DNA of 55,205 bases from a virus (taxonomy: Duplodnaviria; Caudoviricetes). The position numbers and the translations under genes are program-made. The stretch covers positions 1 through 55,205 of IMG/VR virus record IMGVR_UViG_3300031974_005644; one strand, 5' to 3'. The notes under the pieces are model-generated. The model did not search any database. It saw only the letters and a program-made list of their open reading frames with translations, and was not told the origin of the DNA. Positions 32,441 to 37,649 of the stretch are shown here, piece after piece; position 1 is the first letter of the stretch, and every line of letters starts with the position of its first letter.

Positions 32441-33217
32441 TCAGGCTCTCCAATTGGGCGCCGGCCGGTGGCGGTCGCGGGTTTGCGGCTTGCAGATGGC
32501 ATAGCGCCGCATCACAAAGGCGTATCGGCTGGCGGCCATCAGGTCGTCAGCCTCCTTCACGATCTTTCCGTCTTTGCGGTGGTACAGCCGAAACTCGTCC
32601 CACCAGTCCGACAGGTGAGCGGCGACCTTGAACGTGCCGATCTGCATGGCATCAAGCATTTCCGAGATGCCGGCCTCAACCGACACCCGCGACACGTTCG
32701 TTTCGCCTTCGCTGCCCGCCTCGGGAAGCTGGGCAATCTCGTGCAGCATGTTCAGACCCTGGCCCCGGTACTGCTCAGCCAGTTGAATGCCGGTGCCCTT
32801 CTCGGTCTGCAGGCCGTCAGCCGGCCATGCAACGGGGATCCACACGCCACGCGCCTTGATCGCCGCGGCGTGAGTGACCGGCGTCTTCTGCGCGACCCGA
32901 TAGGTGTCGTACAGATACATCGTGTCGGTGTCTCGATCCCAGGCGAACCAAGCTGCAGCGGTCGGGTGATCCCACCCGAAGTCCATGCCGCAGATACGTG
33001 GCCAATGGGCCGGAAACGGAAACAGGTTGAACTTGATCGACTCTTCGTCGACCGGGAATATCGCGCCGCTGCCCAGTGCCGGAATGCCTTGAGACCGGGC
33101 CTTGCGTAAGTGCGCTGGTGTCGAGGCCAGCAGTTCCGCCTTGGTCTTGGCGTCAAGATGAGGCACATTGTCCCAGCCCGCCATCACCAGGTACTTCGAA
33201 GGTGAAACTTCAGGCAT
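32441..33217 (-). CDS. terL: terminase large subunit, C-terminal piece (end of ATPase/lid + RNase H-like nuclease)
   Basis: GWDNVPHL...[39 protein letters not shown] at 33217 overlaps the HNH stop. Confidence 0.88.
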
Positions 33218-33764
33218 AACTAATGCCCTTGGCCAAATTCTCGCGGGCACTTATCACTTGCAAGTTGTGTGCGACGTGCAGGCCGCACACGTTGATTCCC
33301 TTGAGGGGAACGATGTGGTCAACGTGCATCACCAACTCCTGCGGGTCATCGCACGCCACACAGGCCGCTAGTTTGGCCTGCAGGTCCATCGCTTCGCGGT
33401 AAATGGCGCGGATCGCGGCGTCGTTCTCCCTGGCGCCTGATCTCATCAGCGCTTTGCGCATGCGTTGCGCCTTGGCCTTGTTAGAGCGGTGCGCAGGGTC
33501 TAGTTGCCGCCTTGAGTTGTAGGAGGCAAGGTGTGACTTGTTCGCGCGCTTCCATGCCAGGGATGTGGCGCGGTCGATGTCTCCCTTGATCGCGTAGCGA
33601 GCCATCCGGCGGGCGCGCGCGCATTCCGTGCAACGGGACTCGTAGCGTGTGCTGGCTTTGCCTTGACGCGTGGTGTACGGGTAACTGTAGAAATGATCCA
33701 GAGACAGGAGACGCCCGCAGGTGATGCAAGGTCGCTCGCCGGCGGTGATGACGGTGTAGGCCAT
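33210..33764 (-). CDS. HNH homing endonuclease inserted in terL
   Basis: CxxC...CxxC zinc finger; HVDHIVPL...[22 protein letters not shown]. Confidence 0.9.
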
Positions 33765-33769
33765 GTCGT

Positions 33770-34516
33770 TCAGTTGCCTTTCGGCATCCCGTTGGGCAGG
33801 AAGCTCTTCACCGTCTCTGTCACGCCTTCAAGCGGCGTGAACGTGATGGCGACCATGCCGCCGGTTGTTGCGGTACGGATCAGGCACTCGCCGTAAATGT
33901 CGATGGGCGGCTCTTCGTCGAGCCAGATCACGTCCTGCTCGGTGCCCTCAAAAGCCCCGCGGCCCTGCTGGTAGCTCTTGAGGCCCAGTCGCGACCATCC
34001 GCCGCTGACGTGCTCCACCATCACCGTGTCGAGAAGGTCCTGAACGCCTTGCTTCCAGTTCAAATCGCCGATGGCGTCGCCATAAATCAGCCCGGTACCG
34101 CTGACAGACTTCGGCGCGCCGCCCATCACCGAACCGACCAGCTTGGCTTGCACGATGTCGCGCGTCGTTTCGTTGGTCTTGCCAGCAGCCCATGCGCTGA
34201 TCGGGCGAGTGAACCGGCGGCCAGGCCACCAGTCGGGATACTGTCCCGTCAAATGCAGCGCTATTTCGTAGCCGCCTGCGCCTTCCGATTTACCGATGCG
34301 ATTGGCCGCCAAGAAACACCGCTCGCGATACGTCGCGCCGGCCGCGAAGAACTCCAGGTGTTTGGGGTACAACTCACGCCGCAACGGCCCTTCGTCCGGG
34401 AAGAACGAATCAATCTTCCGACGACTCTTCCGACGCTCCGCTTCCTCCAGCAACTCCAATAGCTGTAGCCGCTCCGAGCGCGGCAACTGCTCCCAGTTTG
34501 GCGGCAAGTCGGGCAT
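33770..34516 (-). CDS. terL: terminase large subunit, N-terminal piece (ATPase core, P22 gp2-like)
   Basis: Walker A AANRIGKS, Walker B VIWLDEEP, coupling motif TFTP. Confidence 0.9.
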
Positions 34517-35030
34517 TCAGATCCTCGTCCGAGATGTTGCGTACATCGACGTTGGCGTCGACCGAGACTTTGTCGCCGTACTCTTTCGAGGCGATCTTCG
34601 CGGCTCGCCAGCGGTAGTGATGAGCGAGCTCCTTGGCCTTCTTCAACTCGAACTCATCCTTGGCGAGATCGATCCTCGATTCCGCCTTCTCGTCCCAAAG
34701 TTTCGCCGTCGCAGTACGGGCCTCGCGCACGCGCGCGGAACGAACCGGATCTGCGTCAATCCACACCAGCAATCGAGTCAGCGAAGCGCCTGCCTCTGCG
34801 GCAATGTCCGTGAGGCTCTTACGGTCGATGATGGCCTCGCAAAGACGCGAGATGCCGTAGTTGTCCATCGCCTCTACAGTCGCGCCGCGCTTGGTCTTGC
34901 ACGTCTTCGGCTTAGCCGCCGCCTTTGCCTTCGGCTGGCTGGACTTCGGCACCGGCGTCTTCTTGGGCGCCGCCTTCTTCCCCGCTGGCTTGGTGGGCGC
35001 CTTCGTCGCGCCGCGCGCCTTCGTGCTCAC
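34410..35030 (-). CDS. terS: terminase small subunit (Sf6/P22-like) with a basic N-terminal tail
   Basis: HTH region and RWRAAKIASKEYGDK motif; position upstream of terL. Confidence 0.8.
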   Translation of the reverse strand: MSTKARGATKAPTKPAGKKAAPKKTPVPKSSQPKAKAAAKPKTCKTKRGATVEAMDNYGISRLCEAIIDRKSLTDIAAEAGASLTRLLVWIDADPVRSARVREARTATAKLWDEKAESRIDLAKDEFELKKAKELAHHYRWRAAKIASKEYGDKVSVDANVDVRNISDEDLNARLAAKLGAVAALGAATAIGVAGGSGASEESSED

Positions 35031-35290
35031 TTCTCGTAATCCACCGGCGGTTCGCTGCTGTCGAGCGCTTGCCGCTTGTTCTTCCGGCGTTCCTCTCCTG
35101 ATCGGCGGTCTCTCCGGTCACCGTGCTCGTTGCGCCATGACCAGAACTTGTGAGCCAGCAGCACCAACAGGTAAATCACCGTCAGCACCGCAATCAGCTC
35201 CTGAGACGTCGCCCCGCTCACCATTGCCGCCACGGGCGGCGTCAGCTTGGCGGTCTCCATTGGCAGGTCTGCGAGGATCTGTGTCGACAT
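35027..35290 (-). CDS. putative holin
   Basis: Small protein with a hydrophobic helix (LIAVLTVIYLLVLLA) and a highly charged C-tail; first late CDS after the RNA region. Confidence 0.55.
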   Translation of the reverse strand: MSTQILADLPMETAKLTPPVAAMVSGATSQELIAVLTVIYLLVLLAHKFWSWRNEHGDRRDRRSGEERRKNKRQALDSSEPPVDYEK

Positions 35291-35299
35291 GCGCTCTCC

Positions 35300-35718
35300 A
35301 TCCGCCCGCGCCTGGCGCTGGCTCTCTGCGTGAATTGACGCCCGATAACGGGGGCGAACCGGCCCATCACCCTCAACGATTCAGCCCCGGAGTTGTTCAC
35401 TAAGGGCTATGCGGGTCGGGGGCTGCCGGGTTACTCGCCACGTCCGGCTTGGCGGGGGTGAATAGATGCCCCGCATACACGGGGCCTCCCTCGCTATCGG
35501 CTATGCGATGCTGGACGGGGAGAAGGGTGAAGTGGTTGCCGGTTACAGCGTCCGGCGCGCTTGCTGCGTTGCAGCGGCTGGAAGCGCTGGTGGTCATCTG
35601 CGGGTTACTGGTCCCGCGACCTGATGCCACTCAGGTCAGTTCATGCCCTTCGGTCGGCTGGCGAGCCGCTTTCGTTTGAGGGACCGGCCCCGTTAGCCTG
35701 GAACGGGGCAACCGCATA
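35300..35718 (-). ncRNA. candidate structured RNA with three GG-AC-loop-GT-AA-CC hairpins
   Basis: No convincing ORF; dense inverted repeats; motif copies at 35425-35448, 35538-35556 and 35600-35617. Confidence 0.5.
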
Positions 35719-35719
35719 T

Positions 35720-35760
35720 TGGTAGCGGCGGGTCGAGTCGAACGACCTATATTTGCCGCG
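35720..35760 (-). tRNA. 3' half of an interrupted tRNA(CAT) (Met or Ile2)
   Basis: GGTCG-TTCGACT-CGACC T-arm, then CGCCGCT-A-CCA. Confidence 0.85.
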
Positions 35761-36190
35761 CCTCAAGGTACTGAATGATGTTTTCGACTTTACGCTTCAC
35801 GGCAGGCAGGCTATCTCCAAGACGCCCAATCAAAGTATTGCAATGCCTGCACAAAATCCCGCGCGGTTTTTGGCTTTCGTGGCAGTGATCAAAAACCAGA
35901 TCTTTCTTGCTTAAGCAAACCTGGCATTCATCAATGCCTAAACCGAGAAGTGCGCCTACGCTCAGCACATCTAGTTTGTAGCGGGCTGCAATGACCTTAT
36001 CTTGGTTCCGCGCTTCCCATGATCTAACAGCATCTTTGTGCCGCTCTCGGTTCGCCGGATACCAGACCTCTCTAACGTATTTGTTGTGGCATGCCTTACA
36101 TTTTGATGATCTACCAGTTTTACTGGCGGACTTCTTTGAAAATGATGCCTCTGGCAGATGCTCTCCGCACGAAATACATTCGTAGATCAT
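35747..36190 (-). CDS. endonuclease VII-family (His-Me finger) endonuclease inserted in the tRNA
   Basis: CxxC...CxxC N-terminal finger; CQVC...DHCH...RGILCRHCNTLIG; AGGA SD then ATG at 36190; AT-rich relative to the genome. Confidence 0.88.
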   Translation of the reverse strand: MIYECISCGEHLPEASFSKKSASKTGRSSKCKACHNKYVREVWYPANRERHKDAVRSWEARNQDKVIAARYKLDVLSVGALLGLGIDECQVCLSKKDLVFDHCHESQKPRGILCRHCNTLIGRLGDSLPAVKRKVENIIQYLEARQI

Positions 36191-36200
36191 GGGCGATCCT

Positions 36201-36239
36201 GTTATGAGCCACGCGGAATGCCGGTTTCCTACAGCCGCT
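36201..36239 (-). tRNA. 5' half of an interrupted tRNA(CAT) (Met or Ile2)
   Basis: AGCGGCTG-TA-GGAA-ACCGGCA-TTCC-G-CGTGG-CTCATAA-C: acceptor strand complementary to the 3' half, D-arm, and anticodon loop with CAT. Confidence 0.8.
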
Positions 36240-36244
36240 TCAAA

Positions 36245-36271
36245 CAAAAAACCCGGCGCGGAGGCCGGGCT
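36245..36271 (-). terminator. intrinsic terminator in the late leader
   Basis: GCCCGGC-CTCCGC-GCCGGGT followed by TTTTT. Confidence 0.75.
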
Positions 36272-36274
36272 CAT

Positions 36275-36525
36275 GAATAGCTGAAAACGGGCCGGAGATG
36301 ATCCCGGCTTGCATGCCTGCCACGGTGTAGAACACGACGCCTACACTTTTCGCCGCCGCCCGGTCCTGCATCATCGCTTGCTGGCGATGGCCGTTGCTTG
36401 CCGGATTATCGCTGCACATCATCACTGCGCACTTCCGCTTTCAAGCGATGCCGTCCGGGGCCTCGCGCTACGCACTTGGCTGGTGCCGCATCCTTCAAAG
36501 CTCTCGGCTGTCCGAGATTTCTAAC
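36275..36525 (-). ncRNA. candidate structured RNA between two terminators
   Basis: Multiple hairpins and no convincing ORF. Confidence 0.4.
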
Positions 36526-36528
36526 GAC

Positions 36529-36553
36529 AAAAGCCCGCTGATCGGCGGGCTTC
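36529..36553 (-). terminator. tR'-like terminator
   Basis: AAGCCCGCC-GAT-CAGCGGGCTTTT just after the pR'-like promoter. Confidence 0.75.
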
Positions 36554-36568
36554 TTAGGCAACTACTGC

Positions 36569-36608
36569 AATGTACCTGAATGGTGCATCCTTAATTCCAG
36601 AATGTCAA
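36569..36608 (-). promoter_or_regulatory. pR'-like late promoter
   Basis: TTGACA (36608-36603)-17 nt-CACCAT, followed by a -10-like TACATT (possible sigma pause element), directly downstream of Q. Confidence 0.6.
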
Positions 36609-37075
36609 ATCGCCCTGATCCGTGGGCCGTAGGTCTCCATCATCGCGCGGTCGTGCGTGTTGTTCACGTAGTAGCGAACCGCCTCACGTAGCAGCCCCAT
36701 GGCGCGGTCATGCAGGATCGTGACCAACTCACGGTCAGCCTGGGCGGCGTTCGCGATCTCCTGCAGCGACATGATGCGAATGAAGCGCGCACGGATGATG
36801 TCGCGGGCCTGGCTGTGCAGCTCGATCACTCGGGCGTCGATCATCCGATACAGCCCCTGCCCGTCTTCGTCGGCTCGCATGTACTCGGCAAAGGCTGGAT
36901 CGGCATGTGTGCCCAGCGGCCGGCTGAACCGGGCCTGCTGCTCCACGCTGCCACCGCTCCCCAGGCCGGGCCGCTGCACCCTCGCCCATCCGCCCCAGTC
37001 GCGCATCACCTCGGTCAGCACGTCGTTGCGGCGATAGCGGGCCTTCACGCTCTCCATCTTGATCGCTGCCATCAC
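36605..37075 (-). CDS. late antiterminator Q-like protein
   Basis: WGGWAR N-terminal motif, C-terminal sigma4-like HTH, position at the end of the nin region. Confidence 0.7.
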   Translation of the reverse strand: MMAAIKMESVKARYRRNDVLTEVMRDWGGWARVQRPGLGSGGSVEQQARFSRPLGTHADPAFAEYMRADEDGQGLYRMIDARVIELHSQARDIIRARFIRIMSLQEIANAAQADRELVTILHDRAMGLLREAVRYYVNNTHDRAMMETYGPRIRAI

Positions 37076-37281
37076 AGCCGCTCCCCCATCCGTGTAGCAA
37101 TCTCGGCCAGCAGCGCCTTGCTCGCAATCGCCGACAGCGGCTCATCAACCGCCCAGGCCTCGACGCTGCTCGCCCGGTGGCCGCACTCCCGGCACTCGTA
37201 CCGCCGGCGCCGGCGGGCGGCTTCCTGCCGACTCTCTCGCACGATCAGACTCGGGCTCAGGCACTTCGGGCAGGCGTTCAT
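37072..37281 (-). CDS. zinc-ribbon protein (Ogr/NrdR N-terminal-like)
   Basis: CPKC...ESR...RRRRYECRECGHR. Confidence 0.75.
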   Translation of the reverse strand: MNACPKCLSPSLIVRESRQEAARRRRRYECRECGHRASSVEAWAVDEPLSAIASKALLAEIATRMGERL

Positions 37282-37649
37282 GCGGGCTCCATGCTCAGAT
37301 ACCGCGTGATCGATTCCGCCGCCTCATCCCACCCTTTGGCCACGACCGTGGCGTAACCCTGCCCAGCGAGCCGTGCCAGCCATTCGCGCTGTTCGGGTGA
37401 CGTGGTGCTGCCCTTGCGCCGCTTAAGCTCCACGAACAGCCCGTGGGAGCCACCACGGGGCACCGGCAGGCAAAGATCAGGAACGCCGGGTTTCACACCT
37501 TCGGCTTTCAGGCGCCCGGCAGTGGCTTTGCTGCGATGGCCACCGTTGGGCACGGCGAACAAAAGCGCCAGTTCGGGATACGCGGCCTTTGACGCAGCGG
37601 CCCAACGCATCAGGGCCACTTGCTCGACGTGTTCGGTTGGGCAGGTCAT
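37278..37649 (-). CDS. VRR-NUC nuclease
   Basis: AVPNGG...GVKPGVPDL...FVELK...SPEQREW. Confidence 0.88.
   Translation of the reverse strand: MTCPTEHVEQVALMRWAAASKAAYPELALLFAVPNGGHRSKATAGRLKAEGVKPGVPDLCLPVPRGGSHGLFVELKRRKGSTTSPEQREWLARLAGQGYATVVAKGWDEAAESITRYLSMEPA

Follow-up and report, generated by a model that had tools for sequence, protein, structure and literature searches.

In the 55,205-nt stretch of phage DNA analysed here, referred to as the window, the gene of a free-standing homing endonuclease of the DHHRN/Endo VII type has very probably invaded and killed a phage tRNA(CAU) gene. Related phages keep the tRNA gene unbroken, so what is seen here is invasion by a selfish gene rather than a novel type of tRNA intron. 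The insertion, its exact borders and the intact ancestral allele are established by direct comparison of alleles, and a cleavage and homing mechanism is proposed for this nuclease by analogy. A preliminary description of this DNA had reported tRNA halves around an Endo VII gene; the ORF and both tRNA parts are indeed present, and the borders of the insert have been corrected. The features of the locus and its neighbourhood are as follows.

36605..37075, minus strand: Q-like antiterminator gene, upstream of the locus (phrog_79, E 1.9e-4)
36249..36272, minus strand: intrinsic-terminator-like hairpin with T run (9-pair stem, six pairs G-C, then TTTGTTTG)
36201..36239, minus strand: tRNA(CAU) 5' part, nt 1-39 (sequence reading and ARAGORN; matches the insert-free allele)
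35749..36200, minus strand: inserted cassette, 452 bp (junction 35748->36201 in X6, X7 and X10; composition)
35747..36190, minus strand: nuclease ORF, 147 aa plus stop (Pfam Endonuclease_7, phrog_2633, motif alignment)
35720..35748, minus strand: tRNA(CAU) 3' part, nt 48-76 (sequence reading, insert-free allele, ARAGORN)
35027..35290, minus strand: holin-like gene, first late gene downstream (phrog_920, E 2.5e-7)
34410-35030, after the holin-like gene: terminase small subunit gene (phrog_1482, E 2.3e-9)

The 5' part (36239-36201) reads as the acceptor 5' strand, a D arm GGAA/TTCC, the anticodon-stem 5' strand CGTGG, the loop CTCATAA and C39, and the 3' part (35748-35720) as the last variable-loop nucleotide, a T arm GGTCG/TTCGACT/CGACC, the acceptor 3' strand CGCCGCT, the discriminator A and an encoded CCA. 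In the acceptor stem, an extra or mismatched T, already remarked on from the sequence, is shared by the occupied and intact alleles; it is T7, which faces C66. The cassette has replaced tRNA nt 40-47 (8 bp), that is, four nucleotides of the anticodon-stem 3' strand and four of the five variable-loop nucleotides. It contains a Shine-Dalgarno sequence (36200-36197), the ATG (36190-36188) and the nuclease ORF, with no complete stop codon of its own. As had been described earlier, the AGGA of the Shine-Dalgarno sequence comes from the insert, and the ORF runs into the 3' part of the tRNA. The AGGA lies 6 nt upstream of the ATG, and the TAG stop consists of a T of the insert followed by A48 and G49 of the tRNA. 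With a GC content of 0.482, versus 0.621 for the window and 0.61-0.64 in the 300-nt flanks, the cassette is compositionally foreign.

The decisive evidence is provided by the insert-free allele. Empty alleles, which the preliminary description had proposed to seek through the flanks, were found in contigs of three DNA metagenome runs from three studies (X6, X7 and X10; three of the four runs compared), where 35748 is joined directly to 36201, with eight other letters in place of the 452 nt of the window and an unambiguous junction in each. The contigs carrying it measure 55,218 nt in X7 and 46,851 nt in X6. Record 3 of X10 shows 0 differences from the window over flanks of 72+261 nt (333 nt), its match to 36201-36461 including the whole 5' part. 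ARAGORN, run on the rebuilt empty allele with its default settings, reports a tRNA-Met(CAT) of 76 nt, in which the 5-bp anticodon stem is perfect and the variable loop has 5 nt. Thus, an intact insert-free allele is present in otherwise identical or near-identical phage DNA, the homologous locus without the nuclease gene holding the intact target in all three runs and studies. Judged by the identical flanks of the empty allele, the insertion in the window is recent. A contiguous cloverleaf gene is found in the insert-free allele only; in the window, plain ARAGORN finds 0 contiguous tRNAs and the RF00005 model 0 at E<=1. Elsewhere, no match was returned by exact scans of IMG/VR with a 28-nt stretch of each tRNA part or by a blastn search with the locus in 50,697 phage records.

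With the occupied and intact alleles together, the borders of the insertion can be set to the base, and a pointer to the probable cut site is obtained. The 5' half at 36239-36201, proposed from its tRNA structure, stands unchanged in the insert-free allele. The 3' half, formerly drawn at 35760-35720, holds for 35748-35720, and its first 12 nt (35760-35749) are assigned to the cassette by the empty allele, so that an insert of 440 nt (35761-36200) becomes one of 452 nt (35749-36200). The letters CGCG-GCAAATATA, read as tRNA, are cassette sequence up to the last A (35760-35749), including the CGCG that had been paired as a stem strand. A 9-nt variable region and insert ends of the form AGG...AGG were likewise artefacts of the misplaced junction, and a split "in the anticodon stem" was roughly the right position. 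The good preservation noted for both halves holds, and is due solely to the recency of the invasion (0 differences in the 333 nt of X10 flanks).

The inserted gene encodes a small protein with an N-terminal zinc-finger-like region (CxxC...CxxC) followed by an Endo VII/DHHRN domain. Pfam Endonuclease_7 (PF02945) matches residues 87-143 with an E value of 2.6e-12 and 46.9 bits, against a gathering cut-off of 23.6; it is the sole Pfam match above cut-off, and no GIY-YIG domain was found among these matches. The phrog_2633 family, "endonuclease VII", matches at E 3.1e-24. In an alignment, C89, C92, D101, H102, H104, R110, C114, C117 and N118 are invariant in all five clade sequences, and the DH.H...C..CN block aligns to Hpy99I. 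For F-CphI, the available part of PMC6083498 defines the residues D, H, H, R and N together with CX2-4C and CX2C zinc ligands; the nuclease shows this same set, the correspondence to T4 numbering being drawn by pattern. As judged from its sequence, the protein thus carries the full and intact DHHRN/Endo VII catalytic motif. A homologous-protein search returned three relatives besides the nuclease itself (P0002, 52% identical, lies on a 1,868-nt ENA contig), a single-protein scan of IMG/VR returned none, and a scan of genome contigs gave only two distant Streptomyces matches (27-29% identity, no tRNA).

The broader family of Endo VII-type relatives was followed in 102 loci, 80 viral and 22 metagenomic. 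ARAGORN in its default mode finds tRNA genes within 1.5 kb in six of them (L005, L007, L085, L086, L087 and L088), L087 being a duplicate of L007. They account for five of the six distinct relatives closest to the nuclease (39-47% identity); ARAGORN makes no call in the sixth, L006, which by manual reading lies between tRNA-like halves. A quick tree was built from 105 candidates (the 104 loci L003-L106 and the window), from which a length filter of 90-260 aa removed five and identity to another entry removed 15. In the resulting 85 distinct rows, the seven tRNA-linked proteins form one clade with an SH-aLRT of 97, a clade defined by only six distinct relatives. The link of this nuclease clade to phage tRNA(CAU) genes spans unrelated phage backgrounds of ~30% to ~63% GC.

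Within the clade, the insertion sites converge, without being identical in position. Three of the six closest relatives lie between tRNA halves by manual reading, L006 included, and in two the gene abuts an intact tRNA-Met(CAU) or overlaps with it. By manual parsing, the L005 and L085 nucleases are inserted in a CAU tRNA, after the anticodon arm and before the variable loop; their joined halves fold into cloverleaves with z of -1.9 and -3.0, respectively (RNAfold, hand-chosen junctions). L006 holds a 5' part and, in exact register, a T loop, the 3' strand of the T stem, an acceptor complementary at 7/7 positions, the A and the CCA; the 5' strand of the T stem is missing. In L086 the stop of the ORF abuts nt 1 of an intact tRNA-Met(CAT), and in L007 the ORF extends 37 nt into one; in L007, L086 and L088 the gene lies outside any tRNA halves. 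Insertions range from replacement of nt 40-47, through 43/44 and replacement of ~40-53, to a site immediately 5' of the tRNA, variation that leaves a single fixed target site undemonstrated.

Automated searches returned little on the split relatives. Flank joins gave ARAGORN no CAT tRNA (0 joins for L005, 0 for L006, nine for L085 without CAT), and with lowered thresholds the calls for L005 and L006 were as noisy as those of controls (61 in L009, for example) and were discarded. Infernal found no half-tRNA and no group I or other Rfam family in L005, L006 and L085; a permuted-tmRNA match at E 0.4 in that scan was dismissed as chance. The halves of these three loci therefore rest on manual parsing and RNAfold. 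A half-tRNA scan, a weak test, gave 3'-half candidates in 6 of 83 loci, with 54 among 820 mismatched upstream/downstream control pairs.

The genomic context is that of a bacterial lambdoid-like prophage, with a portal protein at most 32% identical to any of the 50,697 phage records. The terminator-like hairpin lies downstream of the Q-like antiterminator gene, ends ~10 nt before tRNA nt 1, and resembles tR' of a lambdoid late leader. The terminase large subunit gene follows that of the small subunit, downstream of the holin-like gene. Two other replacements, of 719 and 725 nt, occupy the same locus in X5 and X10 and mark it as a mosaic hot spot.

Taken together, these data fit the following course of events. 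The ancestral prophage carried one tRNA(CAU) gene, its only tRNA gene, in the leader of the late transcript, with the Q-like antiterminator and terminator on one side and the genes for lysis and packaging on the other. Into this gene came a 452-bp cassette for a probable free-standing homing endonuclease of the Endo VII-motif (DHHRN, His-Me finger) family; 8 bp (nt 40-47) were deleted, and nt 1-39 and nt 48-76 remained as flanks. The ORF supplies its own Shine-Dalgarno sequence and start, the stop being completed from the first two retained tRNA nucleotides. With nt 40-47 lost in this way, the tRNA is, on this reading, a dead, split gene, with no intron, no ribozyme and no rescue by excision. 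Where a carrier phage and an insert-free relative share one cell, the enzyme would be expected to cut the intact tRNA(CAU) gene, probably near the anticodon-stem/variable-loop/T-arm region, and double-strand-break repair would copy the cassette into the cut allele; the carrier would be immune because its own target is disrupted. Expression would presumably be late, on the Q-antiterminated transcript. That a homing nuclease had destroyed its own tRNA target was among the possibilities first raised for this locus, and it is now backed by the empty allele, the foreign composition, the motif and the association of the clade with tRNAs. Insertion of an IS or transposon was considered and rejected, as no transposase is present and what the empty allele reveals is replacement of 8 bp, without target duplication.

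Among competing explanations, a tRNA-scaffolded messenger would be formed if RNase P and 3' trimming acted on the paired tRNA parts and released the nuclease mRNA from the late transcript, which we regard as unlikely. It is equally unlikely that its base-paired, CCA-ended termini stabilise the message or tune its expression, a tmRNA-like topology in which the tRNA is dead and has been exapted. The nested arrangement occurs in four loci (the window, L005, L085 and L006), and acceptor stems are fully complementary despite sequence differences between loci. Moreover, between L005 and L085, whose ORFs are ~93% identical, the anticodon and T stems carry compensatory changes, which could mean that the shape of the split tRNA is still under selection; however, such differences fit the invasion of different tRNA(CAU) alleles equally well, L006 is without the T-stem 5' strand, and L007, L086 and L088 have their genes outside tRNA halves. 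The minimum free energy fold of the 525-nt RNA does keep a 6-bp acceptor helix and the T arm, being only marginally stabler than shuffles (z -1.8). In the window the insertion is recent, so that its preserved pairing needs no selection. The preliminary suggestion of a tRNA-ended, tmRNA-like mRNA gains no support, as ARAGORN finds no tmRNA in the window and Rfam none in 35000-37000. Precedent comes from SegB and the T5 F-Tfl genes, whose transcripts are reportedly affected by processing of neighbouring tRNAs (available part of PMC2330249). The specific form in which the clade's nuclease mRNA sits inside the tRNA fold (in L085 and L005 like a giant "variable arm", in the window in place of nt 40-47) and is released and protected by tRNA-processing enzymes is quite unlikely, and in clean insertions the tRNA body might still function as a tRNA "in pieces". 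If true, this would amount to a naturally occurring tRNA-scaffolded messenger, and a selfish gene would have found a new, intron-less mode of residence within an RNA gene.

It is very unlikely that the nuclease is passive cargo that serves the phage, either as a junction resolvase or as an HNH-like factor associated with packaging, and that illegitimate recombination brought it into the tRNA gene; that tRNA regions merely act as recombination hot spots has the same low probability. The 8-bp junction deletion resembles illegitimate repair, the 719- and 725-nt replacements attest to a hot spot, and the gene lies ~0.7 kb upstream of the terminase genes. In a scan of IMG/VR, the Q-like protein had one relative, L002, with neither the nuclease nor any tRNA, the latter also being compatible with passive cargo. 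Chance landing is nevertheless hard to reconcile with the link between clade and tRNA(CAU) in unrelated backgrounds or with presence/absence polymorphism within identical flanks. As for a service to the phage, the protein has the N-terminal zinc-finger-like module for DNA binding, does not have the C-terminal part through which resolvases dimerise (147 aa; Pfam matches residues 87-143 only), and would join a VRR-NUC/resolvase-like gene already present at 37278-37649.

A real intervening sequence, removed by non-canonical splicing or bridged in a two-piece tRNA with the CGCG... of the cassette replacing the lost stem strand, is highly improbable. With introns allowed, ARAGORN reports a tRNA-Met(CAT) with a 440-nt insert in the native sequence, and scoring of the joined halves, as had been proposed, yields an 80-nt tRNA-Met that uses the cassette-derived CGCG as stem. 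However, among 8,360 joins around the ends of the ORF, 154 give a junction-spanning tRNA, 61 of them tRNA-Met(CAT), and this tolerance of many junctions makes the join call weak evidence. Intron mode over 84 loci gave two calls, in the window's own region and in L041, the latter a likely false positive on the opposite strand to, and beside, the ORF of that locus. GCGCGGC also ends the L006 cassette, where it is unable to pair with the 5' stem strand, which marks it as cassette and not exon sequence. Since the occupied allele has lost eight nucleotides that the ancestral tRNA possessed, removal of the insert cannot restore the tRNA, and the earlier proposal of a two-piece or non-canonically spliced tRNA is contradicted. 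The absence of a ribozyme core, noted earlier, was borne out by a search of 35000-37000 that found no group I or any other Rfam family or ribozyme at E<=10, and we know of no bacterial machinery for protein-dependent tRNA splicing. Finally, chance resemblance, or an attP-type tRNA 3' fragment beside an unrelated hairpin, has a negligible probability: tRNA 3' ends are common at phage attachment sites and RF00005 finds nothing in the window, but this reading is refuted by the insert-free allele, where exactly these two parts and a further 8 nt make up a complete tRNA.

The invasion by a homing endonuclease reveals no new RNA-processing mechanism, and its interest lies elsewhere. Both alleles are in hand, the occupied one in the window and the intact tRNA(CAU) in near-identical phage DNA from three metagenome studies, and a small Endo VII-motif (DHHRN) clade is tied to phage tRNA(CAU) genes. 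The literature searched yielded no description of tRNA(CAU) targets for the DHHRN family (the word "tRNA" is absent from the main text of PMC6083498, and its 313-sequence supplementary tree might list members of the clade). Nor was any report found there of a free-standing endonuclease gene lying, without an intron, within a tRNA gene of a phage. In annotation, a phage nuclease gene flanked by tRNA "halves" is best read as marking an invaded gene and not an intron-containing tRNA, even where the intron mode of ARAGORN reports one. The enzyme is small and its candidate target is roughly 30 bp.

Several known systems bear a partial likeness to this locus. Some tRNA genes of bacteria (Azoarcus tRNA-Ile, cyanobacterial tRNA-fMet/Leu) hold group I introns, which sit in the anticodon region of CAU tRNA genes and sometimes include a homing endonuclease ORF. 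In contrast, the window has no ribozyme core, its insert lies outside the anticodon loop and exon sequence is lost, so that excision does not restore an uninterrupted gene; with incomplete exon sequences, it also differs from archaeal-type split or BHB-intron tRNAs. In Aeromonas phage Aeh1, the free-standing endonuclease gene MobE reportedly splits nrdA without an intron, the protein halves reassembling and keeping function. There the function of the host gene is kept, whereas the gene split here encodes an RNA, has lost 8 nt and is not expected to function. A split terminase gene in the window is, as a separate observation, a closer parallel than MobE to a tRNA broken by an endonuclease gene. 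F-TflI, F-TflII as well as F-TflIV of phage T5 are said to be HNH-type site-specific or nicking enzymes. Like that of the window nuclease, their ORFs lie at phage tRNA genes, embedded in a cluster of these, but the available part of PMC2330249 describes no insertion inside a tRNA.

F-CphI of cyanophage S-PM2 is, in the available part of PMC6083498, a free-standing phage homing endonuclease with the T4 Endo VII catalytic core, to which the window nuclease is likened by motif and not by alignment. F-CphI has psbA as its target, beside the site where an intron is inserted (same part of PMC6083498), whereas the window clade is tied to tRNA(CAU) and the window nuclease, unlike F-CphI, lies inside its target gene. 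Similar in its presumed behaviour is SegB of T4. This free-standing homing endonuclease has its gene in a tRNA cluster and cuts tRNA genes via a T-loop motif, including those of relatives without SegB, and its transcript is affected by tRNA processing (available part of PMC2330249). Both SegB and the window nuclease are located at phage tRNA genes and absent from otherwise homologous loci (available parts of PMC2330249; PMC2988022, Table 1). As far as these sources describe it, SegB lies between tRNA genes (tRNA-Arg/tRNA-Ile) and recognises a general T-loop motif of many tRNAs, whereas the window nuclease lies within one tRNA gene and its clade is found with CAU tRNAs. SegB being a GIY-YIG enzyme and the window nuclease one of the Endo VII/His-Me type, the latter would work like SegB without being a member of its family.

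The locus occupies the minus strand of a complete provirus in IMG/VR (55,205 bp, 62% GC) and comprises the following features:

36605-37075, minus strand, Q-like antiterminator gene (phrog_79)
36272-36249, minus strand, terminator-like hairpin
36239-36201, minus strand, tRNA 5' part of 39 nt (nt 1-39, with the CTCATAA anticodon loop)
36190-35747, minus strand, nuclease ORF of 147 aa
35748-35720, minus strand, tRNA 3' part of 29 nt (last variable-loop nucleotide, T arm, acceptor 3' strand, discriminator A, CCA)
about 430 nt past the tRNA 3' part, minus strand, holin, small terminase and large terminase genes

The account of the locus in the preliminary description, in which tRNA 5' and 3' parts flank an Endo VII-type ORF on the minus strand, is thus essentially right. 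Plain ARAGORN and an RF00005 search each found zero tRNAs across the window; with introns allowed, ARAGORN run on the native sequence called a tRNA-Met(CAT) interrupted by a 440-nt insert, and the halves as first joined in silico do score as an 80-nt tRNA-Met. An Rfam search around the locus at E ≤ 10 returned neither a group I intron nor any other family, in agreement with the lack of room for a ribozyme core stated at the outset. The longest ORF call at the locus (175 aa) starts at 36274, inside the terminator hairpin, and runs through the tRNA 5' part; alignments with nuclease homologues do not begin before the ATG at 36190, the one carrying an AGGA Shine-Dalgarno, so automatic annotation may over-extend the nuclease gene.

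Logan contigs from four DNA metagenome runs containing portions of the sequence were aligned to window positions 35200-36800. Three of these runs (X6, X7 and X10, from three studies) contain a contig that joins 35748 directly to 36201 with zero positional ambiguity, skipping 452 nt and carrying 8 other letters instead, GTCTCGTG (plus strand). The X10 contig shows no differences over covered flanks of 72 and 261 nt; those of X7 (55,218 nt) and X6 (46,851 nt) diverge from the window by a few percent. Read as their reverse complement, the 8 letters supply the rest of the anticodon-stem 3' strand, which forms a perfect 5-bp stem with CGTGG, and four of the five variable-loop nucleotides; the empty allele rebuilt by script is a 76-nt tRNA-Met(CAT) under ARAGORN defaults. 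The ancestral state is therefore an intact tRNA gene, and an intact tRNA(CAU) allele is in circulation.

The cassette can accordingly be delimited as 35749-36200, 452 bp standing in place of tRNA nt 40-47, with 8 bp lost from the anticodon-stem/variable-loop region on insertion. Its composition is foreign (48.2% GC vs 61-64% in the flanks). It supplies the AGGA Shine-Dalgarno and the ATG and has no complete stop of its own, the TAG being composed of its last T and tRNA A48 and G49. Positions 35760-35749, previously taken for the anticodon-stem 3' strand and most of a 9-nt variable loop, prove from the empty allele to be cassette; the cassette end of L006, a related provirus locus, has the same GCGCGGC motif, which is unable to pair with the 5' stem strand of L006. 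The good preservation noted for both halves is borne out and is attributed to a recent invasion, the X10 flanks being identical.

The nuclease ORF matches Pfam Endonuclease_7 (46.9 bits, cut-off 23.6) and phrog_2633 (E 3.1e-24), and among solved structures the closest in sequence is that of Hpy99I, a His-Me restriction enzyme (E 0.012). The catalytic and zinc motif is whole, with C89, C92, D101, H102, H104, R110, C114, C117 and N118 invariant in all five aligned sequences, features that place the protein in the DHHRN/Endo VII-motif family. The conserved region closes with YL[EDK] in all but one of the five, the relative protein P0002, which stops at Y; the tails beyond it vary, being read from the DNA that flanks each cassette.

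This nuclease is rare, with three relatives among 5.8 billion clustered proteins; profile-guided scans yielded 80 loci in IMG/VR, 22 in metagenome contigs and two in genomes. ARAGORN at default settings placed tRNA genes at most 1.5 kb from the nuclease gene in six of the 102 viral and metagenomic loci (L005, L007, L085, L086, L088 and L087, a duplicate of L007). The distinct tRNA-flanked loci make up five of the six distinct closest relatives (39-47% identity), and the sixth, L006, has tRNA-like halves with no ARAGORN call. A quick maximum-likelihood tree built from 85 distinct rows groups all seven tRNA-linked proteins as a single clade (SH-aLRT 97), which sequence context links to tRNA(CAU) genes.

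The insertion points across this clade are similar, not identical. In L085 and L005 the nuclease gene is situated in tRNA clusters: the 5' part before it closes with a complete anticodon arm with a CTCATAA loop, and the 3' part consists of variable loop, T arm, an acceptor strand complementary at 7/7 positions, one base and CCA. Joined at junctions chosen by hand, these parts fold to cloverleaves in RNAfold (z -3.0 for L085, -1.9 for L005). L006 is a GC-rich provirus in which the nuclease gene precedes a membrane-protein gene, as in the window. Its 5' part, by manual reading, holds an acceptor strand, a D arm reached by compensatory changes (AGCC/GGCT vs GGAA/TTCC in the window) and an odd loop; its 3' part opens at the T loop, after which the T-stem 3' strand, an acceptor strand with 7/7 complementarity, A and CCA follow in exact register. 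This copy appears more damaged than that of the window, since the T-stem 5' strand is lost. The putative halves at L005, L006 and L085 are a manual reading, because joins of their flanks gave zero CAT tRNAs with ARAGORN, whose calls at lowered thresholds were equally frequent in controls, and Infernal found no half-tRNA there; exact register, acceptor complementarity and RNAfold back the reading. In L086 a tRNA-Asn precedes the start codon and the stop codon adjoins the first nucleotide of an intact tRNA-Met(CAT), and in the AT-rich L007 the ORF extends 37 nt into an intact tRNA-Met(CAT), the single tRNA of a 63-kb record (57.3 bits), its stop being the TAA of the anticodon loop. In L088 the nuclease gene is followed by an array of at least 18 tRNA genes.

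Several further observations concern these relatives. At L007:1493-1994, an RNase P cut at tRNA nt 1 would give a stop-less nuclease mRNA, and a sigma-70-like promoter (TTGACA...TATACT) was read by eye about 60 nt upstream. The L088 member (433-981, 39% identity) stands directly before its array, with no Met(CAU) among the tRNAs seen; a tRNA-5'-part-like sequence (acceptor, D arm, anticodon-arm-like hairpin) was read by eye before its start, with no matching 3' part. The ORFs of L005 (1433-1978) and L085 (188-731) are about 93% identical in DNA, and the acceptor and D arm are nearly identical; compensatory double changes occur at five base pairs (two in the anticodon stem, three in the T stem), and L005 has in addition one broken pair and one T-loop change. 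The stem differences would fit either the invasion of a different tRNA(CAU) allele at each locus or gene conversion, and the compensatory changes could mean that the tRNA fold is still under selection.

In the window, the region from 35535 to 36432 that separates the Q-like gene from the lysis genes is a hot spot of mosaicism. A contig of the metagenome run X5 has 35536-36431 swapped for 719 other letters, a high-depth X10 contig has 35718-36431 swapped for 725, ending exactly at the tRNA 3' end, and the IMG/VR relative L002 carries about 185 unrelated nt with no tRNA. The large terminase gene of the window is split on the minus strand into two pieces (33770-34516, Terminase_6N; 32441-33250, Terminase_6C), separated by a 184-aa HNH/Endo VII-like ORF (33210-33764, phrog_1035, E 3.6e-18). 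Rfam gave no intron at 32441-34516. The GC content of this ORF is not clearly unlike its surroundings, and its similarity to the tRNA-locus nuclease is marginal (BLASTP E 0.047), the two not being close relatives. It looks like a second endonuclease invasion, with an essential gene now in pieces.

By analogy with known homing enzymes, the nuclease, presumably expressed with the Q-dependent late transcript, would cut an intact tRNA(CAU) gene near the region later replaced; repair of the break from the carrier genome would copy the cassette into the tRNA gene, and the carrier would be immune because its own target site is destroyed. The tRNA is dispensable to the phage, as L002 and two other locus variants have none altogether; this accounts for the ability of an intron-less invasion to persist in the body of the gene. 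The boldest alternative, also put forward in the preliminary description, is that the locus yields a messenger scaffolded by the tRNA, or a still functional tRNA in pieces; it is improbable. Removal of the insert cannot rebuild the tRNA as was claimed, since 35760-35749 belongs to the cassette and nt 40-47 are replaced; with excision unable to restore the tRNA and no ribozyme present, an intron of any known type is rejected.

Among known systems, the locus is a member of neither group I introns, BHB introns nor tmRNAs. The DHHRN family of homing endonucleases with an Endo VII motif, to which the features of the window nuclease assign it, has F-CphI as its founding member (PMC6083498); in the main text of that paper, supplements apart, the word tRNA is absent. 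T4 SegB is encoded among clustered tRNA genes, does not occur in T2L, RB1 or RB3, and cleaves within tRNA genes via a T-loop motif (PMC2330249). The action of the window nuclease would by analogy resemble that of SegB, although it is not a GIY-YIG enzyme. Literature searches returned no account of an Endo VII-motif endonuclease tied to tRNA genes and no report of a free-standing endonuclease gene inside a phage tRNA gene. The locus, while involving no new mechanism, offers occupied and empty alleles as a clean pair found in nature, with a target open to testing.
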